DNA of 48,885 nt from Acinetobacter phage YC#06. Positions within the stretch are counted from its first letter, which is position 1. Each line of letters opens with the position of its first letter. A model generated the notes under the pieces. That model was given only the letters and a program-made list of their open reading frames with translations. It had not been told where the DNA came from and searched no databases. A program made the position numbers and the translations under genes. Location of the stretch: the sequence record ON391949.1. One strand, given 5' to 3'. Of the stretch, positions 2,870-48,885 are shown piece by piece.

Positions 2870-2986
2870 TATCTACTATAAAAACTATTGGCAATCTACA
2901 CATTACACACTAAAACATCAATAAATATTACTATCTAATAAGTGATATACCCCACATTTAAAAGACTGTGTCGGGTTCACAGTTTA

Positions 2987-3202
2987 TTAATCTTTGGTGT
3001 TATTAATTTTCTGACCTAGCTTTCCTTCTTTTACCAACTGCACGACCTGCTCATTAGTAAGCACAGGAATAAAGACTTTGTCGCCAATATCTTTAGAAAG
3101 AATCTTTACTTCTTCAGCGGTTAGCACCAAAGCTTCACCATGTTTAGCAGCATCATTGATGCGAGCAATAATCTGGTTGATTGGTCGTTTTGAATTGTCC
3201 AT
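2987..3202 (-). CDS. small hypothetical protein between repressor and RM gene
   Basis: 71-aa ORF filling the gap on the same strand; no recognised motif. Confidence 0.3.
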   Translation of the reverse strand: MDNSKRPINQIIARINDAAKHGEALVLTAEEVKILSKDIGDKVFIPVLTNEQVVQLVKEGKLGQKINNTKD

Positions 3203-3216
3203 AAGTCTTCCTGTGA

Positions 3217-3981
3217 TTAATGCGAATAAGGATGTTCTTGTCTGTGCTGACTTGGCGGCACGATATCTGTAATAGCGGTAATACTTTCAACTTCGTCCAT
3301 TTCAAAGAAAAATCGCTCACCACCATTCACAGAAAGCAAACTTAAAACCCCACCATTGATGCCGACAAATTCTTTAATTGTGCATCTTCCATCCTTCAAG
3401 CACACCTGAACAAACTCATTCGGCACAAGATCTGCATCAGGGTCGCATACTACATACCAGCCATTACGAATTGCTGGAAACATTGAGTCGCCAGTGCCTT
3501 TAATGCCATAGGCTCGTGGTCCTGCTGAGTGAGTTGGAACATAACCATCACCACCGTTACCTTCGTATCCCATATCTGTGAAATACCCATCCATACCCAT
3601 CTTTGAATAGGCTTTAACAGGAACGTATCTTTTTTGGGTGGGGAATGGTTTAACAGGTGTTTCAATAAATTTAACAGCATCTTCGCTATCGGGAATATTG
3701 TATTTTTTCTTAAAAGCTTCGATATCCAGAACTTTCAATTGTGCAACAGTGCTATCCAACTTGGGACCGCTTTCATCTCCATTAGTTATATACGAAGTCG
3801 ACACTCCGAAATAAGCGGCCATTTTGCTTAATGGGTCTGCTTTAGGAGCATAAGCATCTTTCTCCCAACCAGTAACATTAGGCGCACTAACCCCAGCGAT
3901 TTTTGCCAACTCGCCTTGGGTTAATTTCTTTTCTCTTCGTAAGGCGCGAATACGCTGACCCATAGTTTCTAGATTCTTCAT
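3217..3981 (-). CDS. CI-like phage repressor (XRE HTH + S24 LexA-like autopeptidase)
   Basis: N-terminal HTH LTQGELAKIAGVSAPNVTGWE; C-terminal GDSMFP serine motif and downstream Lys; divergent from Cro-like gene. Confidence 0.85.
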   Translation of the reverse strand: MKNLETMGQRIRALRREKKLTQGELAKIAGVSAPNVTGWEKDAYAPKADPLSKMAAYFGVSTSYITNGDESGPKLDSTVAQLKVLDIEAFKKKYNIPDSEDAVKFIETPVKPFPTQKRYVPVKAYSKMGMDGYFTDMGYEGNGGDGYVPTHSAGPRAYGIKGTGDSMFPAIRNGWYVVCDPDADLVPNEFVQVCLKDGRCTIKEFVGINGGVLSLLSVNGGERFFFEMDEVESITAITDIVPPSQHRQEHPYSH

Positions 3982-4042
3982 ATAAGTTATCTTACATCTT
4001 GCAAAAATAAGTTATCTTTGTTTTAATACTAAGAAATCTTAT
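3982..4042. promoter_or_regulatory. OR-like operator region: ATAAGTTATCTT at 3982-3994 and 4007-4019, plus TAAGAAATCTTAT at 4029-4042
   Basis: Direct and palindromic repeats between divergent repressor and cro-like genes. Confidence 0.5.
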
Positions 4043-4059
4043 TTTTTGAGGTTGCACAA

Positions 4060-4245
4060 ATGACCAAACAGGAAGCTTATGAGTTGCTTGGTGTCAATGG
4101 TGTTGGCTTGGCAAAGTTATTAGGAATTGAACCACCTGCTGTTTACCAGTGGTCAAATGAAAAAATCCCTTTAGCTCGCGAATACCAAATCAGAGACTTG
4201 GCAAATGGCAAAGAGCCAATCAAACGAACTACTTCAAATGCTTAG
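4060..4245 (+). CDS. Cro-like small HTH regulator
   Basis: 61 aa, divergent from repressor, HTH-like GVGLAKLLGIEPPAVYQW. Confidence 0.6.
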   Translation: MTKQEAYELLGVNGVGLAKLLGIEPPAVYQWSNEKIPLAREYQIRDLANGKEPIKRTTSNA

Positions 4246-22282: not shown

Positions 22283-23277
22283 TGGCAAATCTTGTTTTTA
22301 AATTTAGTTGGGATCACCGGCCATTCCCGTATAACTCGGCTCAGGGAAAACGGCAATTCATGCTGCCATTCGCTTCAGGCATTCCTAATCTGGCACCAAA
22401 CTTTTCGCAGGTCCAAGGTACTGCTGCAGTCTCTCAAGGTGGTACTGGGGCAACCACTGCAGCAGAAGCGCGAAATAATCTTGGTGCTGCTGAAAAAGGT
22501 GTAAATACTGACATTACTGAAATGAAAGGTTTAGCTACTCCACTTTCAGTTGCGCAAGGTGGAACGGGTGCTTCTTCTACAGCAGGTGCTCGTTTAGTTC
22601 TTGGTTTAGGTGATATAGGGACTTCTGGATTTTTTGGAAGTAAAATTAGCGAGCTATATAACAAGGTGTCGGTTCCACAATGGATAGCTGTATTAGGTGA
22701 TAACAAGTTCACTTTCCTATCAAGTGGCGACTGGCAAGCGGGGAATACAAAGAACCCACTTAATATGCCTAGCCGATATGGTTCTTTAATGTCGTATTTG
22801 GGATCAAGCTCATATGGAACGTATTCATGGCAGATTTTTAAGGCAGTATTGGGTGGACAGCTTTCCTACCGATATGGGGCAGGAAATAATGTCTGGACTA
22901 CATGGGGACACATTAAAACCAGCTTTAATACATCAGTCGATGCAAATGGGTTCTTAAAATCGGCATCACCAGTAGTGAAGTTATTTAATGATCATATTGA
23001 ACTTAATAGTGATGCAGAAAAGCAACCAATCGAATTTAAGAAAGTTGATGTAGGCGATTATTTAATTAAGGGCTCTTTAGTCTTTGCACAGGAAGGTTGG
23101 TATATCGAAGCACCTAAAGACGCAAACGGCAACACAATCGTTGCAGTAGTGTATGACACCCTAGAAAATGGTGACATCTCAATTAAAACTTACAAGCGTA
23201 AGTTTGATTTTGAACTTGCTGCTGTTGTGGCAGATCACGAGAACCCAATGGACATTCCAGAAGGCAGTAGTGTATGA
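22282..23277 (+). CDS. tail fibre protein, N-terminal/main part (frame ends inside 121-bp duplication)
   Basis: Repeated QGGTGA(T/S) motifs typical of phage fibre N-termini; stop created in second repeat copy. Confidence 0.55.
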   Translation: MANLVFKFSWDHRPFPYNSAQGKRQFMLPFASGIPNLAPNFSQVQGTAAVSQGGTGATTAAEARNNLGAAEKGVNTDITEMKGLATPLSVAQGGTGASSTAGARLVLGLGDIGTSGFFGSKISELYNKVSVPQWIAVLGDNKFTFLSSGDWQAGNTKNPLNMPSRYGSLMSYLGSSSYGTYSWQIFKAVLGGQLSYRYGAGNNVWTTWGHIKTSFNTSVDANGFLKSASPVVKLFNDHIELNSDAEKQPIEFKKVDVGDYLIKGSLVFAQEGWYIEAPKDANGNTIVAVVYDTLENGDISIKTYKRKFDFELAAVVADHENPMDIPEGSSV

Positions 23278-23384
23278 CACCCTAGAAAATGGTGACATCT
23301 CAATTAAAACTTACAAGCGTAAGTTTGATTTTGAACTTGCTGCTGTTGCCATTGTAGCTGATCTCGAAAATCCACTTGATATTC
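23143..23384 (+). repeat. tandem duplication, period 121 bp (first 85 bp identical, last 36 bp diverged)
   Basis: gcagtagtgtatgacaccctagaaaatggtgacatctcaattaaaacttacaagcgtaagtttgattttgaacttgctgctgttg at 23143 and 23264. Confidence 0.9.
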
Positions 23385-23557
23385 CAGAAGGCCGCTGGAT
23401 TGATATCCGTCTGCATGAAGAACCTGAACCAGAGCCTGAAGAGCCGTTGAGTGAAACACCAGTGGATTTCCAGCCGACTAACTTATCTCAGGCAGTTGCT
23501 GCAGCCATGAATGGCGTGGAACCGCCAGAAATCTCAGAAACAGACGAAACACTTTAA
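23168..23557 (+). CDS. tail fibre C-terminal segment in shifted frame
   Basis: Re-reads the duplicated VVYDTLENGDISIKTYKRKFDFELAAV peptide then continues to an acidic C-terminus. Confidence 0.4.
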   Translation: MVTSQLKLTSVSLILNLLLLWQITRTQWTFQKAVVYDTLENGDISIKTYKRKFDFELAAVAIVADLENPLDIPEGRWIDIRLHEEPEPEPEEPLSETPVDFQPTNLSQAVAAAMNGVEPPEISETDETL

Positions 23558-24596: not shown

Positions 24597-25112
24597 ATGG
24601 CTTTAAAAGTCGGAATTATTAAAAGCTCAGACGTATCAAAATGGTGTGAATACAAGGGTGCTGATGGCGATGTACAGGCTGAGTTCAAAGTCCGTGGTAT
24701 CGCTTATAAGCCTTTTCAGGTAGCTATTGAACGGGCAGGAAACCAGATCTCGTCTAAAGGCTATGATGTGATGGTCAAAGATGAAGATGCCAAGCTTTAC
24801 CACGAGCTTTTAATGGATGCATGCGCGGCCCACTTAATCGAAGACTGGAAAGGTGTGGTATTTGCCGAAATCGTAGACGGTAAAACTGTTGAGTCCGAAA
24901 AGCCATATACACCTGAGAATGCCTCAAAGCTTCTTAATCTTGGTGATATTGGTATTTCAATCTGGCTATTCATTAAAGAACAGGCCCAGAAGATTCAGGA
25001 AGACGCAGACAAGGACAAGGCTTTAATTCTGGGAAAGTCATGGAGCTCTACAAATACCAAAAAACGTATGCGTCGAAAACGCCGCACGAAATCGAGCAAA
25101 TCAAGTTCTTAG
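24597..25112 (+). CDS. tail assembly chaperone (lambda gpG analogue)
   Basis: Precedes tape measure; contains slippery heptamer near the 3' end. Confidence 0.6.
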   Translation: MALKVGIIKSSDVSKWCEYKGADGDVQAEFKVRGIAYKPFQVAIERAGNQISSKGYDVMVKDEDAKLYHELLMDACAAHLIEDWKGVVFAEIVDGKTVESEKPYTPENASKLLNLGDIGISIWLFIKEQAQKIQEDADKDKALILGKSWSSTNTKKRMRRKRRTKSSKSSS

Positions 25113-25234
25113 GATTCAGGAAGACGCAGACAAGGACAAGGCTTTAATTCTGGGAAAGTCATGGAGCTCTACAAATACCAAAAAACGTATGCGTCGAAAA
25201 CGCCGCACGAAATCGAGCAAATCAAGTTCTTAGG
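24993..25234 (+). repeat. perfect tandem duplication, period 121 bp, spanning the frameshift site and the G stop codon
   Basis: 24993-25113 identical to 25114-25234. Confidence 0.95.
25031..25037 (+). other. programmed -1 ribosomal frameshift slippery heptamer G GGA AAG (second copy at 25152-25158)
   Basis: Identical to lambda G/GT slippery sequence; correct frame relationship G(0) to T(-1). Confidence 0.6.
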
Positions 25235-25481
25235 TGGCCGTATTCCGGATCCGCCAGAATATTCGTATGCGGCCGACTCTATTCTTTCGGCATTTAGTAC
25301 TATTGCCAGATCCAGACGGTATGAGCAGGGTATCCCGTTATCTTTAGATCAGCAGGCAATCAATGTCTATGCAGAGCATAATGATTTACCCGTGGCTGCT
25401 CATATTTTTAATGACTGTATTTTTGCTTTGGATAACCTGTTTCTGGATGAGTGCCATAAGAAGTTTAAGGCAAAAAAATAA
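25161..25481 (+). CDS. tail assembly chaperone T-extension (expressed as G-T fusion by -1 frameshift)
   Basis: The -1 frame from GGGAAAG reads directly into this ORF (..GKVMELYKYQKTYASK..). Confidence 0.55.
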   Translation: MELYKYQKTYASKTPHEIEQIKFLGGRIPDPPEYSYAADSILSAFSTIARSRRYEQGIPLSLDQQAINVYAEHNDLPVAAHIFNDCIFALDNLFLDECHKKFKAKK

Positions 25482-25657
25482 AATGTTTTAAAGCTTTATT
25501 CCTTAAAGCTTAATCAAGTGCGGGATATTTTAAGAAATAAACTATATACCGCACTTTTAGCATAGTATTTCTAAAATCCTTAATAGCAAGTTTGTTAAGT
25601 TGTTGAATTTTAATATTTTAAATTTCAAGGCTAGGTGTTTAAGAATGTAATTTCTAG

Positions 25658-25686
25658 TTGACATAAATGTCATTAAGAAATATTAT
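25658..25686 (+). promoter_or_regulatory. sigma70-like promoter TTGACA-17-TATTAT with palindrome AATGTCATT in spacer
   Basis: Consensus -35, 17-bp spacer, near-consensus -10, upstream of the TA-like pair. Confidence 0.45.
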
Positions 25687-25791
25687 ATTTTCAATAGTAA
25701 ATTATATCGTACGAAATATTGTTGAATCGCACGATTACTATTAATGTTAATTTTATTTAACTGATTATCTTATTCTATTTTGGAAATTATT

Positions 25792-25941
25792 ATGAAAGCT
25801 CCAGCAATGTTGGTAACACCAACTTTTGGTGTTGATTCATCTCAAAAAATTCTTCAAGAAGCTCAGAAAAAAATTACGCCAGCTCGTAAATCACGCCTTG
25901 AGCAGCTTGCTCAAATAGCAAAAAACGCATTTAAAAATTAA
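25792..25941 (+). CDS. 49-aa small ORF, putative antitoxin partner of GNAT toxin
   Basis: ATG 25792, stop 25939-25941, 15 bp upstream of GNAT gene; below 60-aa track cutoff. Confidence 0.35.
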   Translation: MKAPAMLVTPTFGVDSSQKILQEAQKKITPARKSRLEQLAQIAKNAFKN

Positions 25942-25956
25942 TTATGAGGTTTCAAT

Positions 25957-26502
25957 TTGTCCACAGAGATTAATATTTCTGAGGTCGAGTTACGAAATTT
26001 AGATTCAGTAGAAAAGCATCTTTATCAAGATTTTTGTTGTGAGCGTGAAGAGCTCAATACGTTCTTGATTGAAGATGCTTTTGATTATCATAATTATGGT
26101 TTAACCCGAACTACTTTGGTATTTCATAACGATGTACTGATTGGCTATTTTAGCTTGTCAGCTGATAAAATTGTGCTCACTCAAACAGAAATTGATGAAT
26201 TATCTTTAAATGGGGAATTTAAAGTAACTTATTTCCCTGCAGTAAAGATTACAAAACTTGCTATTCAGAAAGCTTTTGCTGGCAAGGGGTATGGTAGGCT
26301 TATTTTGGAATTAATTGAAGGCCTAGTGTATGGTCAACATATGGCTATAAGATTTTTGACTTTAGATGCTGTAAATGAGGAAAAAGTTCTTAAGTTTTAT
26401 GAGCGAAATGGATTTAATGAAAGTCTCCATGAAGCTAGACAGCAAAGACAAAAGCAAAATAGGCAAACGATATTAATGCATAAAGATATCTTTAGTGAAT
26501 AA
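25957..26502 (+). CDS. GNAT acetyltransferase, TacT/AtaT-like toxin family
   Basis: Alignable by eye to TacT: LIGYFSLSADKIV, KLAIQKAFAGKGYGRLIL (motif A), FLTLDAVNEEKVLKFYERNGF; TTG start after GAGG. Confidence 0.65.
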   Translation: MSTEINISEVELRNLDSVEKHLYQDFCCEREELNTFLIEDAFDYHNYGLTRTTLVFHNDVLIGYFSLSADKIVLTQTEIDELSLNGEFKVTYFPAVKITKLAIQKAFAGKGYGRLILELIEGLVYGQHMAIRFLTLDAVNEEKVLKFYERNGFNESLHEARQQRQKQNRQTILMHKDIFSE

Positions 26503-26523
26503 ACCACCTTCGGGTGGTTTTCC
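26501..26523 (+). terminator. rho-independent terminator after GNAT gene
   Basis: aaccaccttcgggtggtttt. Confidence 0.55.
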
Positions 26524-26581
26524 TTTATGTGACATTTAATGATCAGTTTGCTAAATTACCCCCAAATATGAGGGTATTTTT

Positions 26582-27343
26582 ATGCTTAAGGACTATCTTG
26601 GGCCTGCCGCTGAACATAAGCACAAAGCAGAACAAGCCATTAAAGAAAAGAGATTTGATGATGCTTGGCGTCATCTTAATGAGCAAAAAATAAATTATTT
26701 TCAGCACGCAAAACAATGTAATTTTACTGAAAAGCAAACTTTGGGGCTTGATGCGGTTGTGCACATCACAATGGGCAATTTACTGAGAAGAGAAGGTAAG
26801 CATTTACAAGCTTTGTATCACATTGCTTATGTTTATAAGGTAGGTAAGCTAGAGAACCCCCAAAATGACAGTAACGATGATAGGCTAAGAATCTACTATA
26901 AAAGAGCAAAGAAAGATGGTGGATTCGAGAACTTTAAACAAGGGCTTGACCTTTTTCCCAGTTATGATTATCAGTCAGTGCAACATTTCACAAGCAGCCT
27001 TTTAAATTCTGGAGACGTAAAACAAGGAGCTATTACTTCTCCTCAAATTGAGGAAAAGCCTATTACAAAAATCCCAGAAATTAATAAGAACGCTATAAAT
27101 AATAAGTTTTTGGCTGAACGCAAGAAAAAAAAGGAAGAACATATTGGGATTCCTCCTCCATTAAAAAAGCCCGAGAAGAAGCAAGTTATTCAATATGAAA
27201 AGACGAATAGCCAAATAAGTGCAACACCTGTTAGCAGTAGTTCAAAAACTGAAGGATGTAGGAGTTCGGTTTCAGGGTTCTTTATTGCAGCGACTTGCGT
27301 GGTGATAGGTTTAATTCTGCTTGTTTGGTTGCTTTCATACTAA
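26582..27343 (+). CDS. C-terminally tail-anchored membrane protein (moron)
   Basis: Single TM helix FFIAATCVVIGLILLVWLLSY at extreme C-terminus. Confidence 0.45.
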   Translation: MLKDYLGPAAEHKHKAEQAIKEKRFDDAWRHLNEQKINYFQHAKQCNFTEKQTLGLDAVVHITMGNLLRREGKHLQALYHIAYVYKVGKLENPQNDSNDDRLRIYYKRAKKDGGFENFKQGLDLFPSYDYQSVQHFTSSLLNSGDVKQGAITSPQIEEKPITKIPEINKNAINNKFLAERKKKKEEHIGIPPPLKKPEKKQVIQYEKTNSQISATPVSSSSKTEGCRSSVSGFFIAATCVVIGLILLVWLLSY

Positions 27344-27408
27344 AATAGTAAACTAGAGAATAAACACGCTACATGTTAAATTTTACTCAAAGATAATGGT
27401 TTGGGAAT

Positions 27409-27786
27409 ATGAAAAAGATTATTTTATTAGGTTTAATATTAGGTTTAGCAGGGTGTATGTCTACTGCTAATTTTTTTGAAGTGCAAGCCACCTCTGTTCA
27501 GAATAGCGGTTATTGGACCGGGCAATATGATCGATTAGTAGGAACATTAAAGTTAAATTCCGATGGAACTGGTGTTATTTGTCAGGATGGAATGGGAACA
27601 GCGAGAGTAATGTCTGTTAAAAAATCAAATGATAAACTCTATTCACAGGATGGCAGCTTCTGGAAAGTGCAAAATGAAACACTCAACTCTATGAAATTAA
27701 ATTATGCAATTGGTGGTGGTTATGAAATGAAAAAAGATGATGATTTATCTTTGGCAACACCAGCATGTAAAGAAAAATTGAAATGA
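27409..27786 (+). CDS. lipoprotein (moron)
   Basis: MKKIILLGLILGLAGC lipobox. Confidence 0.6.
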   Translation: MKKIILLGLILGLAGCMSTANFFEVQATSVQNSGYWTGQYDRLVGTLKLNSDGTGVICQDGMGTARVMSVKKSNDKLYSQDGSFWKVQNETLNSMKLNYAIGGGYEMKKDDDLSLATPACKEKLK

Positions 27787-27834
27787 ATTCAAAATGATTT
27801 GTTAAAAATTTGACTTAGATCAGGTTTTTTATTT

Positions 27835-28410
27835 TTGATTAATGACCGCCTTTTGGCGGTTTTTTATTGCCTAGAGGAAAGTAAAATGGCACAAGAATCC
27901 CGTTTGGTCATTGTTATTGATTCGCAAAATGCTGAACGTAATGCGCGTAATCTAGGCAATGAACTTGTTAGCATTGAACGTAAAGGTGAATTTGCATCTA
28001 AGTCTATGGACAGCTTGTCTGTAGCCACCAGAGCTTTAGCTGGACACATGGCTGGTTTATTAACAGTAGGTTCAGCCATTTCAAAGATGGATACATATAC
28101 TGGATTACAAAATCGCCTTAAGTTAGTCACTAACAATCAAGTTGAACTAAATAAAGCAACGGAAGACACTTTCCGAATTGCTCAAAAAACCTATTCAGCT
28201 TGGGATTCTGTGTTACAGGTTTACCAGCGTTTTAGTGATAATGCCAAAACTTTAAACCTCACAATGGATGACACAGCACGTTTAACTGAAACAGTTTCTA
28301 AAGCTGTAGCAATTAGTGGTGCAAGCGCAGAAGCTGCTGATGCAGCTTTAGTTCAGTTCGGGCAGGCCTTGGCTAGTGGAACGTTGCGTGGACACTGCTC
28401 GACTAACTGA
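27835..28410 (+). CDS. tape measure protein N-terminal fragment (true start likely ATG 27887)
   Basis: Ends just inside second copy of 121-bp repeat; the duplicated peptide DTARLTETVSKAVAISGASAEAADAALVQFGQALASGTLRG is shared with next ORF. Confidence 0.5.
   Translation: MINDRLLAVFYCLEESKMAQESRLVIVIDSQNAERNARNLGNELVSIERKGEFASKSMDSLSVATRALAGHMAGLLTVGSAISKMDTYTGLQNRLKLVTNNQVELNKATEDTFRIAQKTYSAWDSVLQVYQRFSDNAKTLNLTMDDTARLTETVSKAVAISGASAEAADAALVQFGQALASGTLRGHCSTN
27844..27866 (+). terminator. rho-independent terminator before tape measure
   Basis: gaccgccttttggcggt + T6. Confidence 0.55.
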
Positions 28411-28511
28411 AACAGTATCAAAAGCAGTTGCGATCAGTGGTGCAAGCGCAGAAGCTGCTGATGCAGCTTTAGTACAATTTGGGCAGGCTTTGGCAAGCGG
28501 TACATTACGTG
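28270..28511 (+). repeat. tandem duplication, period 121 bp, copies differ only at synonymous positions
   Basis: Copy at 28270 and copy at 28391 encode identical 41-aa peptide with about 21 synonymous differences. Confidence 0.9.
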
Positions 28512-31500
28512 GTGAAGAACTCAACTCAGTTATGGAACAAACACCAGCTCTAGCAAAGGCTATTGCTCAAGGCATGGGGATCACCGTAGGAGAGTTGCGT
28601 TCAGTTGCGGCTGAAGGAAAAATTACTTCACAAGAAATCGTTAAAGCGCTTAAAAATGTCCAAGATGAAGTTGATGCTCTTTTTGCTAAAACTGACATTA
28701 CAATTGGTCAATCATTAACTCTACTTAATAATGAAATTACTAAATTTGTAGGAGAGGCTGGTAAAGGAAGCGGAGCAGCACAGGCTTTATCAGGATCGAT
28801 TCAGTTATTAGCAAATAATTTGAATTTAATTGCAGACAGTGCATTTGCCATAGGTATTGGCTTAATGACAAAAGCCGTTTTAACAAAAACGGTTGCTGTA
28901 CAAGCGAGCATTGCTGCGTCAACCAAACAAGTGTTTGCCACAATTGCTGAACGTAATGCAAATATTGCAGCAGCAAAAGCTGAAGTGGAATCTGCGCTTG
29001 CCGAAGCACAAAGTACACAGGTGACACTAACGAACATCAAAGCTACTCATGCTCAGATCATGGCAGAAATAGAACTCGAAAAAGTTCGTTTAAAAGCCCA
29101 AATCACTGAACAAGGTCGCACGGCTACCATCACACGAATGGCTCAGCTTGGACGATTACAAGCTCAAGTTGCGTTAGAGGTTGCTGCTGCGGAAACAGCA
29201 CAGTCTGCAGCTTCATCTAGATTATCAGCAGCCTTAACAGCGCAATCTGTTGCTACTAGCCGTTTAGCTTTAGCAAAGTCAGCGCTTATGGCGATTTTTA
29301 GCCCAATGGGTTTAGCAATTGCAGCAACAGCCGCATCTTTCTATTTACTAAGCAGCAGTTCGGATGAAGTCAAAGAGTCTCTTGCAACACAATCTGACTC
29401 GGTTAGTGATTTAACAGATAAGTACATAAAGTTAAATACTGTGCAAGCATTAACAGAGGGTGTGCGGTTACGCAAAGAGATTGAGCAGCAAAATGATGCA
29501 ATTGATGATGCTAGTGGAGCTATCAAACGTTTTGCTTATATCCAAAAGGAATTATTTAAATTATCTGGCAGTGATTATGAAGATTATCAAAATGCCATTA
29601 AGTCTATTGCTACAGGTGCAAGCGATGCAGGTGATCTCTTAAAAAAGATGATTTCATCTGGTCGTTTTAGTCAGACTCAAATTGATAAACTTATTGAGTT
29701 CTCTAGTGTAGTAGCAGAATCAAAAAATAAGATTGAGCAGGGTAATACTGCTCTAAAACTCTTAAATGCTACTTCTGGACAACATGTTGAGGTAACGGCC
29801 GAATCAATTAAGCAATTAACTATTCAAACCAACTTAACAAAAGTTGCTACTCAAAATTTCACTGACATGAAAACACAAATGCTTGATTCATTACGAGCAC
29901 AAGTGGAATTCATTCGGTTAAATGGTGGTAGCGAAGAACAAGTTAAATCGTTGAATAAGGTAATCCAGGCATATTCTTTAAATCAAATTTCAGCAACTGA
30001 TGCTGTGGACAAGTTCAACAGTACTGCCAAAGTTCCTGCTGAAAATATCAAGGGGTTACAGGATTATGCTACTAAAACGGATCAGTCTAAAATTGCGTTG
30101 AATCAGGCTAATGCTGAGCTGAAGAAACAAAACGACTTACGTAATGAGTACCTAAAACAACATCAAACTGTACTTGGTGCTCAACAAGGAGAAACAAATG
30201 AATTAAATAACCAAGTCGCTGCACAAGAAAAGTTAAATAAGTTACGAGACAACGCCAACAAAGATATTCTGAAAAATGATTTTCTTATAAAAAACACTAA
30301 GGCATTTGGTGGTGGCGAAAAGGGTCTTGATAAGGCGCGTGCGGCATCAGAGTTTTATACCGACAATAAAATTCCGATGACTAGAAGTTTAACTAGTCAG
30401 GAAGCTGCAATTTTTGAGGCTTGGTATAAGAAGCAGAAGGAAGCCAAGGACTTACAAGAAAGTATTACCGAATCTAGCAGAAAGCAAACAAAAGAGGTTG
30501 AAAAACAAACCAAAGAGTCTGCCAAACAAGCTGTTCTACTTGCTGGAAATGATGAGCGAGTGAGAAATATGCTACGAGTGTATCTGGCATTTCGAAATGC
30601 AGGTTTAGGCGATAAACAAGCTCGTGTAATGACAGCTCAAGTTGGACGAGAGACTGATTTTAGAAATGAGGCAATGTTTGGTAGCCATAAGGATGAAAAT
30701 AATGGTTATACAAATACTGGATTTTTATCATGGCAAAAAAGTCGCTCAACTAAATTAATGCAGTCTTTACAAGGGCAAGGAGTCTTGGATAAAAACGGTA
30801 AAATCCAGCAAACTCAAGATGCATTAGATGCAATGGCTAAACACGCTGTGCAAGAGGCGATGACCGATAAAAGTTATAGTAAATCTAAAGCAGCTCTTCT
30901 TAATGACGATTTAGACTATCGAAGTTTAGAGAGAATTGTTGCCAAAAATTTTGTTGGCTGGGACTATGACGGGAAAAAGCTTGGCAAAGCTAAAGCTTCA
31001 CAGCATTTAGCCAAACAAGACTCTTACTATAATCAGCTTAGTAAAATTTTAGGGGATAACCCCGAAGCAGCCTCAAAAGCAATTAGTGATCTTTCGAAAT
31101 TCGAAGATGAAGCATATAAGGCACGTGCAAAAACTCTTGAGGAAATTAAGCAGCTCCAAGCAACATATGATTCAGAAACAGTTGCTAGAAGCAAAAAACG
31201 TGAGGAGGAAATCAACAAAGCAACCATTTTAGGTCAATCAAATTTAATCCCAAAAATTAATGAGCGTTATGATGCTGAAGATAAGTTAGCTCAGAAGCAA
31301 TTTGATTTTGAAGTAAATGGTTATAAGTGGACTGAGAAGCAAAAGCTTGAGTACACATATGAAATCAATTCTTTGCGATTAGTTGCTGAAGGCAAACTCT
31401 CTGAAGATCAAAGAAAGGTTGCTTTAGATGGCCTGGAATTGCAAAAGCAGCAAGAGTTAGGATTACTAAAACTTGCTCAGGAACAGCGGTTGTTTCAGGC

Positions 31501-32902
31501 TGAGCAATTCATGCTGGGAGAAATGGAGCGTATCAAAAAACGTTATGCGCTTGAGTATGATGAAATATCAAAAATCACTGATCTTGAAGAGCGTAGAAGG
31601 AAGATGAGTGCATTTCAGGCTGATTTTATTCGTAATGGTGTGGGGAATCCAACAATTGATCAGTATGATACCTCTAGTCAGTTTCTTAAATCGACAAACT
31701 ACACCAAGCCCAAGCAAACCAATATGCAAGTATTGGATGAAGATTACGCTCAAACTTATCAAAAGTTGAAAGATAATCTTGCAGCTGTTTTGGAGTCTGA
31801 AAAAGCTAGTTATCAGGAACGATTGGAGGCGGAGCGCGTATTCAAAGAAGCAAGACAGCAAATGGATAATGAGTACCACCTGAAGGCGATTGATGCAAGA
31901 AAAGCAGATCACGACAGTCAATTGCAATTATACAGTCAGATGATTTCATCTGCTTCAAGCACATGGGGAGGTTTAACTCAAATTGTTAAGGATGCGCGTG
32001 GTGAAAATTCACGCTCTTTCAAGGCAATGTTTATAGCTCAACAATCCTTTGCTATTGCTTCTGCGATTATCTCTGCTCATTTGGCAGCTACACAAGTAGC
32101 TGCTGATGCAACGATCCCATTTTTTGGGGCAAAAATTGCGGCTTCAACCGCCATGCTTGCTATGGGATATGCAAATGCTGGTTTGATTGCTGGGCAAACA
32201 ATAGCTGGATTCTCAGATGGTGGTTACACTGGATCTGGTAGAAAATATGAACCTGCAGGTATTGTCCATAAAGGAGAGGTGGTATGGTCCCAAGAGGATA
32301 TTAAACGCTGGGGCGGAGTTGGTTTAGTTGAGAAAATGCGTAAGAGTGCAAACCCTGAAGCTTTTCTCAATAACAATGCCTCGGCAGATAGTGTCATGCG
32401 CCGTGCAATGATGAGTTCTAATGCCTTTATAGAAAGCCAAAAGCAGGCTGACATCTTTAATCAACCAGTTCAAGATACTCAGATTATCTATAAGGGTAAT
32501 AGAGACACACCTAAGTTAGCTTCTTCGGCAAATTCTGACCTGTTCCATGATGGCAAGGTCTACTTCTCATCCAATGGTATAGTTCAGGATCGCTCAAATC
32601 TGGATGATGTTCAGGACTTTACTTTAGGACGTACTTCACGCCCTCAAGCTGAGATTATGCCTTCAATTGAGCAATCCTCTCCAACTATCAATTTCAAGAT
32701 TGAAGTCGTGAATCAAGTCAGTGGTGCAACTGTTGAAGCTGAACAACTGGATGAGCAAACAGTCCGGATCATTGTTAAAGATGAACTGGATAAGCAGCTT
32801 CCAAGAACGGTACCTAAGCTTGTAAGTGATCAAATCGCAAATCCAAACTCAACCATTAGTCGGTCTTTGACTGAGAATACGACAGCAAGACGGAATCGAT
32901 AA
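28376..32902 (+). CDS. tail tape measure protein
   Basis: 1508 aa, long coiled-coil regions, C-terminal hydrophobic/Gly-rich region. Confidence 0.85.
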   Translation: MERCVDTARLTETVSKAVAISGASAEAADAALVQFGQALASGTLRGEELNSVMEQTPALAKAIAQGMGITVGELRSVAAEGKITSQEIVKALKNVQDEVDALFAKTDITIGQSLTLLNNEITKFVGEAGKGSGAAQALSGSIQLLANNLNLIADSAFAIGIGLMTKAVLTKTVAVQASIAASTKQVFATIAERNANIAAAKAEVESALAEAQSTQVTLTNIKATHAQIMAEIELEKVRLKAQITEQGRTATITRMAQLGRLQAQVALEVAAAETAQSAASSRLSAALTAQSVATSRLALAKSALMAIFSPMGLAIAATAASFYLLSSSSDEVKESLATQSDSVSDLTDKYIKLNTVQALTEGVRLRKEIEQQNDAIDDASGAIKRFAYIQKELFKLSGSDYEDYQNAIKSIATGASDAGDLLKKMISSGRFSQTQIDKLIEFSSVVAESKNKIEQGNTALKLLNATSGQHVEVTAESIKQLTIQTNLTKVATQNFTDMKTQMLDSLRAQVEFIRLNGGSEEQVKSLNKVIQAYSLNQISATDAVDKFNSTAKVPAENIKGLQDYATKTDQSKIALNQANAELKKQNDLRNEYLKQHQTVLGAQQGETNELNNQVAAQEKLNKLRDNANKDILKNDFLIKNTKAFGGGEKGLDKARAASEFYTDNKIPMTRSLTSQEAAIFEAWYKKQKEAKDLQESITESSRKQTKEVEKQTKESAKQAVLLAGNDERVRNMLRVYLAFRNAGLGDKQARVMTAQVGRETDFRNEAMFGSHKDENNGYTNTGFLSWQKSRSTKLMQSLQGQGVLDKNGKIQQTQDALDAMAKHAVQEAMTDKSYSKSKAALLNDDLDYRSLERIVAKNFVGWDYDGKKLGKAKASQHLAKQDSYYNQLSKILGDNPEAASKAISDLSKFEDEAYKARAKTLEEIKQLQATYDSETVARSKKREEEINKATILGQSNLIPKINERYDAEDKLAQKQFDFEVNGYKWTEKQKLEYTYEINSLRLVAEGKLSEDQRKVALDGLELQKQQELGLLKLAQEQRLFQAEQFMLGEMERIKKRYALEYDEISKITDLEERRRKMSAFQADFIRNGVGNPTIDQYDTSSQFLKSTNYTKPKQTNMQVLDEDYAQTYQKLKDNLAAVLESEKASYQERLEAERVFKEARQQMDNEYHLKAIDARKADHDSQLQLYSQMISSASSTWGGLTQIVKDARGENSRSFKAMFIAQQSFAIASAIISAHLAATQVAADATIPFFGAKIAASTAMLAMGYANAGLIAGQTIAGFSDGGYTGSGRKYEPAGIVHKGEVVWSQEDIKRWGGVGLVEKMRKSANPEAFLNNNASADSVMRRAMMSSNAFIESQKQADIFNQPVQDTQIIYKGNRDTPKLASSANSDLFHDGKVYFSSNGIVQDRSNLDDVQDFTLGRTSRPQAEIMPSIEQSSPTINFKIEVVNQVSGATVEAEQLDEQTVRIIVKDELDKQLPRTVPKLVSDQIANPNSTISRSLTENTTARRNR

Positions 32903-45401: not shown

Positions 45402-45473
45402 CTTTAAGCCTCCAACAACTTGTTACGTTCGATGAAGCCTCTCGAGCACACGCGCCACACGTACACCCGTTAG

Positions 45474-46683
45474 GGAAACGCTGATCAATGAGCCTGTCGT
45501 CCGCATAACGGACGAGGCAGGTTGCAATTTTCAGATTGACGTAGGAATTTGACGACATGCGAGGTGAGTTTCGCTCGTATTCGGGCCTCACTTCCCGCGT
45601 TTTTCACACACATGACGGATTGCTCCCATGAGTCGACAACAGCTGATTTTTCGCGATCACCAGGTTCGCCAGCGCGAACAGACTGAACAGCTGTGCCGTG
45701 TTCCTGGCTAGACCCTTGTAGCGCACCTTGCGATGACGAAACAGGTTCTTCACGACATGAAACGGATGCTCGACCCGGGCGCGGATCTGCGCCTTGGTTC
45801 GCTCGACCGCGATCACGAGGTCCTTCAGCGGACCTTCCTGCATCGCCCTGATCTTTCCGCGCTTGAGCGCCACGTGCCACTTCACCGTCTTGCCCTTCAT
45901 CTCCTCGCGCTTGTCCACGCCGGTGTAGCCCGCATCGCCAAACGCTTCCTGCTCATGACCGTGCAGCAGGGCGTGGGCCTGCGATACGTCCGGCTCGTTG
46001 GCCGCCGTGGTGACCACGCTATGCACCAGACCCGAGTCGGCGTCGACGCCGACATGGGCCTTCATGCCGAAATACCAGTCGTTGCCCTTCTTCGTCTGAT
46101 GCATCTCCGGGTCACGGCTCTTCCCGGCGTTCTTCGTGGACGGCGCAGCCTCGAAGATCGTCGCATCCACCAGCGTGCCTTCCTTCATCATCAGCCCGCG
46201 CTCGCACAACTCGATGCCGATCTCGTCGAACAGCTTTCGCGTCAGTGCGTGCTCGACCAGCAGGCGCCGGAATTTCAACAGCGTGGTGGCGTCCGGCACG
46301 TTCTCGCGCGCCAGGTCGATGCCCGCGAAGGCGCGCATCGCGATGCTGTCGTAGAGCGCATCTTCAAGCCCTTCGTCCGACAACCCGTACCACTGCTGCA
46401 GCAAGTAGATCCGCAGCATCCGTTCCAGGCCAATCGGCGGCCGGCCACGCTCGCCCTTCGGGTAATACGGCCCGATCACCGACAGCAGCCGCGACCAAGG
46501 GACGACCTTCTCCATCTCGGCCAGAAAGCGTTGACGCTTGGTCACCCGCTTCTTGCCCGCACTTTCCGCTTCCGCAAAACCGATCTGCCGCTGCATCGTC
46601 GTGGGTCCGTTCCGTGAGCTTCTTTCTACAACGCCCTTGGCCTCGTCAGCGATGACCGCCAAGCCGAATTGATCAGTGTTTCC
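45474..46683 (-). mobile_element. IS5-family insertion sequence, 1210 bp, 16-bp imperfect IRs GGAAACRCTGATCAAT, TSD TTAG (45470-45473 and 46684-46687)
   Basis: 65% GC island in a 40% GC background; terminal inverted repeats and flanking 4-bp direct repeat matching IS5 YTAR target. Confidence 0.8.
45604..46662 (-). CDS. IS5-family DDE transposase
   Basis: Alignable along full length to E. coli IS5 transposase (…LRIYLLQQWYGLSDEGLEDALYD…DPEMHQTKKGNDWYFGMKAHVGVD…RARVEHPF…). Confidence 0.85.
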   Translation of the reverse strand: MAVIADEAKGVVERSSRNGPTTMQRQIGFAEAESAGKKRVTKRQRFLAEMEKVVPWSRLLSVIGPYYPKGERGRPPIGLERMLRIYLLQQWYGLSDEGLEDALYDSIAMRAFAGIDLARENVPDATTLLKFRRLLVEHALTRKLFDEIGIELCERGLMMKEGTLVDATIFEAAPSTKNAGKSRDPEMHQTKKGNDWYFGMKAHVGVDADSGLVHSVVTTAANEPDVSQAHALLHGHEQEAFGDAGYTGVDKREEMKGKTVKWHVALKRGKIRAMQEGPLKDLVIAVERTKAQIRARVEHPFHVVKNLFRHRKVRYKGLARNTAQLFSLFALANLVIAKNQLLSTHGSNPSCV

Positions 46684-47349
46684 TTAGCGAGAAGGACCAC
46701 TCTGTACTCCGGTCTCACTATTTTTTCTAAAAAGATAATGTTTGAAGCAATTAAATACATTCCAAAAATTTCGACCTTGGACTACATTTTCGTACTTGAT
46801 CCAAGCGCTAAAAGTAACTTTTTGGTACAACCTTGAGCTGAAATCTGGTTCAAGGTTGAACGTTAAAGTAGAGTTGTTCTCTAGCCTATAGCATTCTTTT
46901 TGACCTGTGACGTGGTTTTCAGGTAATTTTTCAATTACAGCTCCAACCGTCTTGGATTTTATCCATAGATTCCGTCCTCCCACCTTCATTTTTGAAAATT
47001 CTTCACGCAATTTCCCAGCTTCAGATACAACTAAAGTCTTATCTGCTTTATCCTTGGTTGCGTTCAGGATTTCCTGACGGATAGAGCCAGCTCGCACCTC
47101 AAATTCAGCCTGACTCAACTTCTGATTTAGCTTGTTCTGCGTGTCTGTCTCAAGCCTCTTCACAGATTGCCGGATATTTTCAGCAGTCACATTGAGTGAG
47201 CTGATATCCACTTTGGTTCTAAGCCCTTCAGTCAAGCTTCTCACACCAGCGTCGAGCGAGTTGGCTCGTTGTTTAAAGGTCGATTCTACTGTTGAAATCT
47301 GCAACTCAACAAGCGCGTAGGGCACGTCTACAAGAAAGCATTTATGCAA
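46684..47349 (-). pseudogene. 5'-truncated ORF (beta-rich C-terminal domain, possibly fibre-like); its first 15 codons are antisense T7 RNAP sequence
   Basis: The ORF's own stop codon TAA overlaps the IS target duplication; homology break at about 47302. Confidence 0.3.
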
Positions 47350-47846
47350 GTTGTCGAGGCTGACATGCTCTCTAAGGGTCTACTCGGTGGCGAGGCGTGG
47401 TCTTCGTGGCATAAGGAAGACTCTATTCATGTAGGAGTACGCTGATATCTGCATCGAGATGCTCATTGAGTCAACCGGAATGGTTAGCTTACACCGCCAA
47501 AATGCTGGCGTAGTAGGTCAAGACTCTGAGACTATCGAACTCGGATATCAATACGCTGAGGCTATCGCAACCCGTGCAGGTGCGCTGGCTGGCATCTCTC
47601 CGATGTTCCAACCTTGCGTAGTTCCTCCTAAGCCGTGGACTGGGATATCTGGTGGTGGCTATTGGGCTAACGGTCGTCGTCCTCTGGCGCTGGTGCGTAC
47701 TCACAGTAAGAAAGCACTGATGCGCTACGAAGACGTTTACATGGATATCGTGTACAAAGCGATTAACATTGCGCAAAACACCGCATGGAAAATCAACAAG
47801 AAAGTCCTAGCGGTCGCCAACGTAATCACCAAGTGGAAGCATTGTC
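47303..47846 (+). pseudogene. bacteriophage T7 gene 1 (RNA polymerase) internal fragment, about residues 95-277, carrying GATATC hexamers at 47444, 47544, 47644, 47744
   Basis: Near-exact DNA and protein identity to T7 RNAP except at the hexamers (APE to GYQ, ITG to ISG, PEV to DIV, and a frameshifting change at the first). Confidence 0.75.
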
Positions 47847-48458
47847 TTCACCGAGATTGGCCTGAAGACCTTAGGGTCCAAGGATGCTGGTGTCCGCGCA
47901 ATCGCTCAAGACCTCGTGCGCTCTCCAACAGGGATGCAATCAGGGTCTAGCGGTAAGTTCGGTGCGACCGCTTCGGATATCCACGAGCGGCTCCACGCTA
48001 CAGACCAACGGATGTATAACCAGCTGTATGACGCTGTTGACCGTGCCATGAAGGACCCTGAGTTCTCCATCGGTGAGCAGAAGATGTCCCGTAAGGCTAT
48101 CCGTCAGGAAGTGTACAAGCGTGCTGCCTTGGCGATTGAGCGCCCAGAGCTACAGGCTGACTTGACCAAAGGTGAACGTGAGGTAATGGACTTGCTGAAA
48201 GAGCACTTCGATACCAAGCGTGAACTGATGGAACAGCCCGGTATCTTTGGCAACGCCAACGCCGTAAGCATCTTCCCCGGTAGTCGTCATAAAGGAACCT
48301 ACGTACCTAACGTGTACGATAGGGGCGCTAAGGAGCTGATGACTCAGAAGCTGGGTGGACCCGAAGGACTCTCATACGGGTCATCTGGTAGAACAGGCTG
48401 TACTTCAGCGCGTGCTTACCGTCTGCATCACGTGCCGTCTGGTAGTCCTGTCGGATAA
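47847..48458 (+). pseudogene. T7-like gp16 (internal virion protein D) internal fragment fused in frame to the RNAP fragment
   Basis: FTEIGLKTLGS...LVRSPTGMQSG.SGKFGATASDIHERLH...RAALAIERPELQ...HFDTKRELME...SIFP.SRHKGTYVP.VYDR matches T7-group gp16. Confidence 0.5.
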
Positions 48459-48870
48459 CCTCGTCACGGATAACCAAGCGGTGACTTGCCAGTACAGGCT
48501 CAAGGGTATCGCAGATACGGGCCTCTTTCATACCACGAGCACGAATCTCTTCGAGTTGCGCTGGGTGATGCTTCAGGAGCACAGGCTGGAACACGTTACC
48601 GAACATACCGTCACCGAAGTTACTCTCGAAGACCACAGTCTGCACCTGCCACTGTTTGGCTTTCTTAGCGAGGAACTCAAGGGACTTCTCTTCGTAACCA
48701 CGGGTACCTCCAGCGTCCATCAAGTAGATGTAACCGTTGAGGGTGTACAGCACGCACCAACCAGTTTCATCCTTACCGCGACCACTGGGGTCAATGACCA
48801 GAATCTTACCCTGATACGCACCAGTGTTACTGGAGGCTGTATGGAAGGAGTAAATCTCGTCACCCTTCAT
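48328..48870 (-). pseudogene. T7-like gp19 (terminase large subunit) C-terminal region fragment, antisense to the gp16 fragment
   Basis: [17 protein letters not shown] ... [10 protein letters not shown] ... GMKEARI resembles T7 gp19. Confidence 0.5.
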
Positions 48871-48885
48871 GCCAACGTTAGGAAG

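Follow-up and report, generated by a model that had tools for sequence, protein, structure and literature searches.

Between the tail assembly chaperone and tape measure genes of Acinetobacter phage YC#06 (ON391949.1; the whole 48,885-nucleotide stretch analyzed is hereafter the window) lie four genes on the plus strand. Reading from the G/T chaperone to the tape measure gene, the locus comprises a promoter, an open reading frame (ORF) of 49 amino acids (aa), a 181-aa GNAT acetyltransferase, a terminator, a 253-aa protein, and a lipoprotein. The window is about 99% identical to Acinetobacter phage YMC/09/02/B1251 (NC_019541), a temperate siphovirus of the genus Vieuvirus, and the region 25300–28000 is 99.8% identical; in that phage’s record, the first and third of the four genes are labeled hypothetical protein, the second acetyltransferase, and the fourth putative lipoprotein. 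Upstream are the genes for the tail tube (Pfam Phage_tube_2, E 4e-35) and then the G and T parts of the tail assembly chaperone (phrog_313), and downstream is the tape measure gene (Pfam TMP_3), with its ATG at 27886. Because the flanking genes have these identities, an earlier sequence-only reading of this DNA was correct in placing a moron island between GT and the tape measure, and all of the elements that it named were found in place. The first two genes are consistent with a toxin-antitoxin (TA)-like module of the GNAT class, with an antitoxin cut down to the toxin-wrapping element and a role as a prophage addiction or abortive-infection device, an interpretation to which we assign roughly even chances.

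The second gene of the pair (25957–26502) codes for an acidic protein that matches Pfam GNAT models and phrog_1758. Its TTG start at 25957 is preceded by a GAGG Shine-Dalgarno sequence (25946–25949) and a 7-nt spacer (25946–25959 for the whole start region), and the copy of the gene in an A. dispersus prophage also begins with TTG. The Pfam matches pass their gathering cut-offs narrowly (Acetyltransf_7, 28.8 versus 27; Acetyltransf_1, 26.7 versus 20.7; Acetyltransf_10, 25.3 versus 23.6). A single-sequence phmmer search of the PDB returned GNAT toxins of TA systems as its 15 best distinct sequences (E 2e-9 to 5e-3), comprising AtaT2 (7f37), KacT, GmvT, AtaT, and TacT1-3. With a profile of 26 subfamily members, these toxins matched at E values of 5.6e-18 to 1.4e-10 and the best non-toxin GNAT at 3.9e-6, a gap of approximately 4 to 12 orders of magnitude. 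The AlphaFold2 (AF2) model of the protein (pLDDT 85.5) has GNAT topology, and the 38 best chains that Foldseek retrieved with it were AtaT2, AtaT, KacT, GmvT, TacT1-3, and one unnamed ‘bacterial toxin’ entry; beyond these came Naa60 and other GNATs with much worse rmsd values. The proposed kinship with TacT/AtaT toxins is thus upheld by sequence, profile, and Foldseek matches in the PDB, and the alignments and model assign the protein to the TacT/AtaT/KacT toxin lineage.

The predicted active site of the GNAT agrees with this assignment. The catalytic tyrosine of AtaT (Y144; Y145 in KacT and Y140 in TacT) corresponds to Y148, a residue that every one of the 37 sequences compared has kept. Acetyl-CoA motif A (Q/R-x-x-G-x-G/A) is present as Q104-K-A-F-A-G-K-G111-Y-G113, and the equivalents of the AtaT acetyl-CoA glycines G106 and G108 (G111 and G113) are invariant in the subfamily, as is the equivalent of AtaT F30 (F36); K100, at the position of AtaT R95, is nearly invariant. 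Hence, the acetyl-transfer chemistry is well supported by alignment and model and looks intact. A conserved basic insertion (RQQRQKQNR, residues 160–168), modeled with low pLDDT, precedes the last strand. Other identities were considered for the protein and set aside: its score with the RimI model TIGR01575 was 22 bits against a cut-off of 86, no resistance acetyltransferase matched at trusted cut-offs, and PADLOC, searched for defense systems, gave only a match of E=0.002 to an unrelated 486-aa model.

The first gene of the pair (25792–25941; ATG start; phrog_35294) codes for a 49-aa basic protein, a predicted stand-alone toxin-wrapping antitoxin, and would reach 53 aa at most from an alternative TTG. 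The window and A. dispersus copies of the pair share 77.5% nucleotide identity, and both genes are under purifying selection (dN/dS: small ORF, 0.19; GNAT, 0.16); because of this selection we regard the 49-aa ORF as a real gene. The charges of the two products are complementary: the partner has an isoelectric point (pI) of 10.4 and a net charge of +6, and the GNAT a pI of 5.3 and a net charge of −8, its clade being likewise acidic. On its own, the 49-aa sequence had no match in Pfam, NCBIfam, PADLOC, or among PDB sequences, and a word search recovered three close relatives only, all in Acinetobacter. We also examined the regions upstream of GNAT relatives in 41 genome loci and in a viral set of 31 IMG/VR loci. 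Nearly all of the 41 had an ORF of 45–60 aa upstream of the GNAT and on the same strand, ending within a few bases of the GNAT start and often overlapping it by 1–11 nt. These small ORFs share a pattern, (M)xKP(I)xxTPxLxGxDA, followed by about 10 residues, P(S/T), and a basic helix. A profile of the family recovered 652 clusters at 90% identity, all of them small proteins without Pfam domains, and 264 representatives at 50% identity among 1.84 billion proteins.

When the profile was built from database proteins only, it matched the upstream ORF in 27 of the 41 loci at E<=1e-3 and none of approximately 6,300 other six-frame segments. The pairing was kept in about 40 of the 41 genome loci and in 30 of the 31 viral ones (the exception is truncated, and there was no match elsewhere in the viral contigs), or approximately 70 of 72 loci overall across four phyla, with hosts in Acinetobacter, Pseudomonas, Betaproteobacteria, Lachnospiraceae, Desulfosporosinus, Treponema, and Bacteroidales. 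Judging from these alignments, the 49-aa ORF is far from being an orphan and is one member of a large, coherent, and unannotated partner family, which is described here for the first time. The arrangement is the one found in type II TA systems: two small, adjacent, and co-directional genes, tightly coupled and kept paired on mobile elements. A longer protein, P0298 (121 aa; 3001–3366 of a small Rep3 plasmid contig), joins a partner-like N-terminus to a HigA-type helix-turn-helix (HTH) domain (TIGR02607, E 8e-23); either the fusion is genuine or the gene was called too long. It was not used as a Rosetta-stone lead, given that there is no visible GNAT on the contig and its N-terminus overlaps the upstream gene.

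The predicted structure of the 49-aa protein resembles the part of a DUF1778 antitoxin that contacts the toxin. In an AF2 model from a 98-sequence alignment (pLDDT 87.6), residues 1–13 are extended, 14–25 form a helix, 26–29 form a four-residue, proline-containing linker, and 30–48 form a second helix. The toxin-binding C-terminal region of KacA consists of betaB (52–56), alphaC (57–70), the linker PPAP, and alphaD (75–86); betaB pairs with a strand of KacT, alphaC packs against a hydrophobic face, and the acetyl-CoA site is perturbed by R77 of alphaD (PMC6698736). The layout predicted for the 49-aa protein equals this betaB-alphaC-PPAP-alphaD order. Because its secondary structure also fits a ribbon-helix-helix (RHH) monomer, we compared the family with both halves of DUF1778, using a profile of seven sequences from plasmid records and PDB alignments. 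Against the whole DUF1778 profile, hhalign placed residues 12–43 of the small ORF on DUF1778 positions 56–85 with a score of 21.5, which none of 300 column-shuffled controls reached (null mean 8.6, sd 1.8, maximum 21.1). By half, the C-terminal part gave P=3e-4 and the RHH part a score of 7.4 with P=0.5, which is noise. The family may therefore resemble, if weakly, the C-terminal half of DUF1778 only and not its RHH half, a likeness in sequence and model that is also new here.

Searches for a canonical DNA-binding partner returned nothing. The 26 members compared with the RHH, Arc, CopG, and DUF1778 (PF08681) models of Pfam had no match even at E<=1; Arc-like proteins of the same size in the sister phage Ab11510-phi were detected at E values of 1e-10 to 6e-7. 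The best 150 of the 264 representative clusters contained no protein of canonical DUF1778 length with an RHH domain. Thus, the upstream partner is non-canonical, as had been suspected: it matches neither DUF1778 nor RHH models and is about half as long as the usual partners. Foldseek comparisons of the 49-aa model with the PDB gave noise only, and the only suggestive PDB hit of the small-ORF family was a C-terminal fragment of AtaR (6gtq_C) at an insignificant E of 0.6. C-terminal antitoxin fragments alone bind AtaT, TacT1/3, and GmvT in PDB entries (6gtq, 7ak8, 7ak9, and 9ils), which makes a free-standing, wrap-only antitoxin mechanistically plausible.

The pair has its own transcription signals. 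A sigma70-like promoter (TTGACA-17-TATTAT; 25658–25686, plus strand) precedes the 49-aa ORF and agrees with the consensus at 11 of 12 positions, so that the strong promoter of the sequence-only reading is confirmed as a predicted consensus match. It is the sole plus-strand site with a match of at least 11/12 in the whole window, and dinucleotide shuffling of the 310-bp intergenic region produced a site of that quality in 1.5% of cases (P=0.015). The palindrome noted in the promoter spacer is also present as an imperfect inverted repeat (25650–25681; arms ATTTCTAGTTGACAT and ATGTCATTAAGAAAT, core TGACAT-AA-ATGTCA) that overlaps both the −35 hexamer and the spacer. However, its 15-nt arms are 80% complementary, a match (>=12/15) that occurs in 19% of shuffles of this AT-rich region (P=0.19) and is no better than chance, and the region upstream of the orthologous pair in A. 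dispersus differs and has no such palindrome. For both reasons we set it aside as an unsupported candidate operator. Upstream of that pair (3600–3760 of the A. dispersus prophage), repeated GTATTGAC(A/G)CG...GCGAAGT motifs overlap promoter-like hexamers, in an arrangement that differs from the window’s and is possibly regulatory.

Directly past the GNAT stop is a hairpin and T-run resembling an intrinsic terminator (26501–26520, plus strand), and a structurally equivalent hairpin with compensatory changes lies downstream of the GNAT in A. dispersus. A second terminator-like hairpin (27844–27861, plus strand) precedes the tape measure gene, and the TRS1 record annotates a rho-independent terminator at the equivalent position. 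The two hairpins close two separate units. A further terminator-like hairpin and T-run (25809–25823) lies within the first codons of the 49-aa ORF and is kept, with one loop change, in the A. dispersus prophage (3857–3871); it could be an attenuator or a mere consequence of the conserved MLVTPTFGV codons. Just past the T gene stop (25482–25556) are nested 13-nt inverted repeats (25495–25507/25529–25541 and 25516–25528/25544–25556), which could fold as a stem-loop ending the upstream transcript and have no T-run. An Rfam scan of 25000–28200 gave no match above noise.

Phage morons, in the concept of Hendrix and Juhala, carry their own promoter and terminator, sit between conserved late genes, and vary among close relatives. 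The promoter, 49-aa ORF, and GNAT form an exchangeable unit of this kind (cassette 1; 25464–26500, plus strand), delimited by breaks in homology with sister phages. Homology with the Vieuvirus phages R3177 and Ab1656-2 ends at 25462/25463 and resumes at 26501–26503, and a 55-bp segment common to the sister phages (26501–26555), which includes the first terminator-like hairpin, is the right-hand joint. Between these joints R3177 carries HicA/HicB and Ab1656-2 carries a DUF4258 protein and an HTH protein. Cassette 1 thus has a promoter and terminator of its own (both consensus matches) and is present or absent among otherwise collinear relatives, and the description of the island as a moron holds, its cargo varying between fixed joints. 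Other phages fill the slot differently. In TRS1 (2138–2866), a DUF4760 protein and a tiny ORF replace the GNAT cassette upstream of the 253-aa/lipoprotein pair. The G/T-to-tape-measure slot of Ab11510-phi (1361–4193) holds two Arc-like RHH genes and an AntA/ORF11CD3 antirepressor, which recall the immI region of P22, together with a DUF4236 protein. The slot is a hotspot for morons in general, with TA cassettes as frequent cargo.

The same pair occurs in other prophages and at other positions. In 17 Acinetobacter prophage contigs from IMG/VR, the small ORF and the GNAT were always together, mostly in the slot between the tube, G, and T genes and the tape measure, and the 253-aa and lipoprotein genes were usually absent; in A. 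dispersus, the pair is located past the tape measure gene. Listeria phage vB_LmoS_293, Bacillus phage phi4B1, and Latilactobacillus phage TMW 1.1397 P1 carry a small ORF and a GNAT between endolysin and integrase. The GNATs of these three match the subfamily profile at E values of 1e-26 to 1e-29 (1e-26 to 1e-30 when Bacteroides phage BS-TP1 is included), and their small ORFs are too divergent for the partner-family profiles. In BS-TP1, the pair adjoins the integrase, and the small ORF is recognizably of the family. Sites between endolysin and integrase, or next to the integrase, are classic positions for genes expressed during lysogeny.

The last two genes of the island form a second exchangeable unit (cassette 2; 26556–27857, plus strand), also defined by comparison with sister phages. 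R3177 and TRS1 also carry it, Ab1656-2 and Acinetobacter sp. JW have other DNA in its place, and in the IMG/VR Acinetobacter prophages it is present or absent independently of the GNAT pair. The 253-aa protein (26582–27343; phrog_6113, ‘unknown function’) has a predicted C-terminal transmembrane segment by hydropathy (residues ~230–252), its sole hydrophobic segment, and homologs in Acinetobacter temperate phages only. The 125-aa lipoprotein (27409–27786; phrog_4487, ‘unknown function’) has the lipobox LAGC with Cys16 and matches the J517_1871 lipoprotein family (NCBIfam NF045606) with 139.6 bits against a cut-off of 60. These results agree with the sequence-only reading, which had recognized a single C-terminal transmembrane segment in one product and a lipoprotein in the other. 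Neither protein had a Pfam, PADLOC, or PDB relative or homology to a characterized exclusion protein. From these features, cassette 2 appears to be a separate, envelope-directed moron limited to Acinetobacter temperate phages, for which superinfection exclusion is a reasonable guess.

If the first two genes are a TA-like module, cassette 1 would be an autonomous moron in which one promoter drives two translationally linked genes up to their own terminator. The GNAT would be an acetyl-CoA-dependent acetyltransferase descended from the TacT/AtaT/KacT toxins, which acetylate aminoacyl-tRNA. The 49-aa protein would be the functional, and probably the evolutionary, equivalent of the C-terminal strand-helix-proline linker-helix region of DUF1778 only, the region that in KacA, AtaR, TacA, and GmvA is wrapped around the toxin, extends its sheet by a strand, and prevents both dimerization and the binding of acetyl-CoA. 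The 49-aa protein would thus neutralize the toxin and should not repress the operon, because it has no ribbon-helix-helix domain. Expression would depend on the promoter and on the different start codons, ATG for the partner and TTG for the GNAT. The pair would serve a lysogen as a module for prophage addiction or abortive infection, a role that fits because bona fide TA cassettes replace it in sister phages. The toxicity of the GNAT, its physical neutralization, its target, and the biological role of the pair are properties that we infer from these comparisons.

Several observations count against a TA module. One concerns the surface with which such toxins hold tRNA. In AtaT, H34, R37, and R40 of alpha1 and K77, K79, K81, and K82 of alpha3 hold the tRNA acceptor stem and are needed for toxicity (PMC7595197). 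At the level of sequence, the corresponding residues of the window’s GNAT are D40, D43, and N46 and L82, L84, G86, and E87. Its alpha1 segment has a charge of −3, compared with +1 to +4 in seven canonical toxins, which are mostly positive in both regions, and across this GNAT and its proteobacterial relatives alpha1 ranges from −1 to −4, with a likewise negative alpha3 region; more distant members of the family (in Listeria and Bacteroides phages) retain a basic alpha3 region. The tRNA-docking surface known from AtaT thus appears not to be intact, and this charge-reversed GNAT clade, as the alignments depict it, is a new point of our analysis. The sequence-only reading had proposed an aminoacyl-tRNA-acetylating toxin and had named the lack of a tRNA-binding basic patch as evidence to the contrary. 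The lineage and catalytic residues agree with its proposal, and the tRNA-binding basic residues have been replaced, so the patch is in part missing, as far as residues can be compared. Given this replacement, and the acidity of the whole proteobacterial clade at these positions, aminoacyl-tRNA is uncertain as the target; it is the default for a GNAT of this lineage, weakened by the charge reversal of alpha1 and alpha3.

The partner adds to these doubts. TA pairs without an autoregulating antitoxin are unusual, and a few members of the partner family (P0239, P0298) have no visible adjacent GNAT. The likeness of the family to the C-terminal half of DUF1778 is weak (hhalign probability of 5–38%, P ~1e-3), a larger small-ORF alignment brought no gain (score 17.7, P=0.007), and HMMER found no link between the partner family and DUF1778. 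For these three reasons, we grade the homology as no more than probable; the likeness could also be convergence of short amphipathic helices. A published analysis of these toxins groups the GNATs that are associated with DUF1778 in a ‘true TA clade’ (Bikmetov et al., 2022; PMC9177977). The authors also noted TA-like bicistrons in which relatives of the GNAT toxins follow short upstream ORFs without DNA-binding domains, placed such GNATs outside that clade, and speculated that they have unidentified antitoxins or different functions (Bikmetov et al., 2022; PMC9177977).

The alternative with most in its favor is that the GNAT serves lysogenic conversion without being toxic and acetylates a different molecule of the host or the phage (a protein lysine, an N-terminus, or a small molecule), with the 49-aa protein as its regulatory subunit, chaperone, or substrate and the likeness to toxins a matter of ancestry only. 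We consider this somewhat unlikely. The reversed charge of the AtaT tRNA-surface residues and the overall acidity of the GNAT are what such an enzyme might show, and for GNATs preceded by short ORFs that lack DNA-binding domains, ‘different physiological functions’ have explicitly been allowed (Bikmetov et al., 2022; PMC9177977); in addition, the slot holds cargo unrelated to TA systems in other sister phages (DUF4760; Arc/Arc/AntA). However, the GNAT has retained the catalytic tyrosine, the acetyl-CoA loop, and K100 at the position of R95, its nearest structures are toxins by a wide margin, and it has no resistance-acetyltransferase or RimI match at trusted cut-offs. Furthermore, an obligatory small upstream partner with overlapping or coupled translation is a hallmark of TA layout, and this partner has the predicted layout of a toxin-wrapping region.

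Two further alternatives concern the partner and the extent of the island. The 49-aa protein could be a minimal RHH repressor of Arc/CopG size that binds the palindrome at the −35 hexamer and also neutralizes the GNAT, in which case the pair would be canonical and autoregulated and the N-terminal half of the antitoxin would have been kept. A strand-helix-helix of about 45 residues does describe an RHH monomer, and the palindrome does overlap the −35 hexamer, but the absence of any RHH, Arc, CopG, or DUF1778 match in a family of proteins similar in size to the readily detected Arc-like ones, the hhalign contrast between the two DUF1778 halves, the two conserved prolines in the N-terminal ‘strand’ (KPIxxTP), and a palindrome that is neither significant nor conserved make this improbable. 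Joint action of all four genes at the envelope, as a single superinfection-exclusion island, is more improbable still. They are co-linear, both products of cassette 2 are predicted envelope proteins, and the four occur together in B1251 and in one IMG/VR prophage. Yet a terminator and a shared recombination joint divide the two pairs, R3177 and TRS1 keep cassette 2 with different upstream cargo, and neither the GNAT nor its partner has a signal or membrane segment. Because the pair stays together in the 17 prophages, most of which are without cassette 2, the island consists of two independent cassettes, and the island of the sequence-only reading is not one unit.

As a TA-like module, the pair is best compared with the GNAT-DUF1778 systems (TacAT, AtaRT, KacAT, GmvAT, and ItaRT). 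It shares with them the toxin lineage and fold, the catalytic tyrosine, the acetyl-CoA motif, a (here putative) antitoxin gene upstream, the predicted layout of the wrapping region, and carriage on mobile elements. It differs in its 49-aa partner without an RHH or DUF1778 Pfam match, in acidic rather than basic alpha1 and alpha3 segments, in the basic insertion of about 10 residues (RQQRQKQNR) before the last strand, and in its location in a moron slot among phage tail genes. Because the partner has neither the RHH domain nor the DUF1778 match, autoregulation through an antitoxin-operator complex is not expected. DUF4065 (PanA-type)-GNAT pairs are an example of partner plasticity, in which a GNAT toxin has its DUF1778 partner replaced or altered, but DUF4065 is larger and of another fold, and there is none here. 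The epsilon protein of omega-epsilon-zeta is a small, helical antitoxin without a DNA-binding domain that only neutralizes, the regulator being a separate RHH gene, omega; cassette 1 differs in having no third gene. The HicAB cassette of R3177 and the DUF4258 and HTH cassette of Ab1656-2 have the same insertion joints, the same order of promoter, two genes, and shared terminator, and the same flanks, but their protein families are unrelated. Compared with phage morons in general, the slot of cassette 1 is a typical hotspot, with no difference of substance.

The best-fitting published description is that of the bicistrons outside the ‘true TA clade’, to which we liken the pair by description (Bikmetov et al., 2022; PMC9177977). 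The short ORFs were called divergent in that study and given no assignment; here they form one family (KPIxxTPxLxGxDA...P...) with a weak link to the C-terminal part of DUF1778. The genes are already known from a public phage record, and this type of locus has been noticed in passing in the literature, in which we found no paper characterizing such a small-ORF/GNAT pair or the genes of this phage. A stronger proposal is that the pair represents a distinct, widespread, phage-borne TA or defense family, in which a wrap-only antitoxin (45–60 aa), descended from the DUF1778 C-terminal region, controls a charge-reversed acetyltransferase of the TacT lineage, with a target other than aminoacyl-tRNA bound as in AtaT and with no autoregulation by the antitoxin. 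We put this forward tentatively, as possible rather than likely.

The window also has features that seem to concern the assembly rather than the island. Tandem duplications at 23143–23384, 24992–25233, and 28270–28511, each with a period of exactly 121 bp, are missing from the B1251 record and break a tail gene ending near 23557, the G/T chaperone, and the tape measure gene (27886–28410 and 28376–32902). A period that is identical at all three places is suggestive of untrimmed contig overlaps rather than of a biological origin. The right end (45413–48885) has no counterpart in the B1251 record and carries an IS-type DDE transposase (45604–46662, minus strand), a fragment resembling the N-terminus of a T7-like RNA polymerase (47459–47950), and another resembling the RNaseH domain of a T7-like terminase (48328–48870, minus strand). 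The 48,885-nt stretch appears to be a chimeric or concatenated assembly.

GNAT toxins are a major TA class implicated in persistence, plasmid maintenance, and phage defense, and current family definitions and search tools lean on DUF1778 as the partner. Should the 49-aa family prove to be a true minimal antitoxin, a role could be predicted for hundreds of small, so far unannotated proteins of gut Firmicutes, Bacteroidales, spirochaetes, and Proteobacteria. The family would also be a natural experiment that splits toxin neutralization from operator binding, and it would draw attention to a GNAT clade in which the reversed surface charge may point to a new target. For the biology of Acinetobacter phages, and for their use in therapy, the analysis marks the G/T-to-tape-measure slot as a hotspot at which temperate phages of the Vieuvirus type shuffle TA, immunity, and envelope cassettes.

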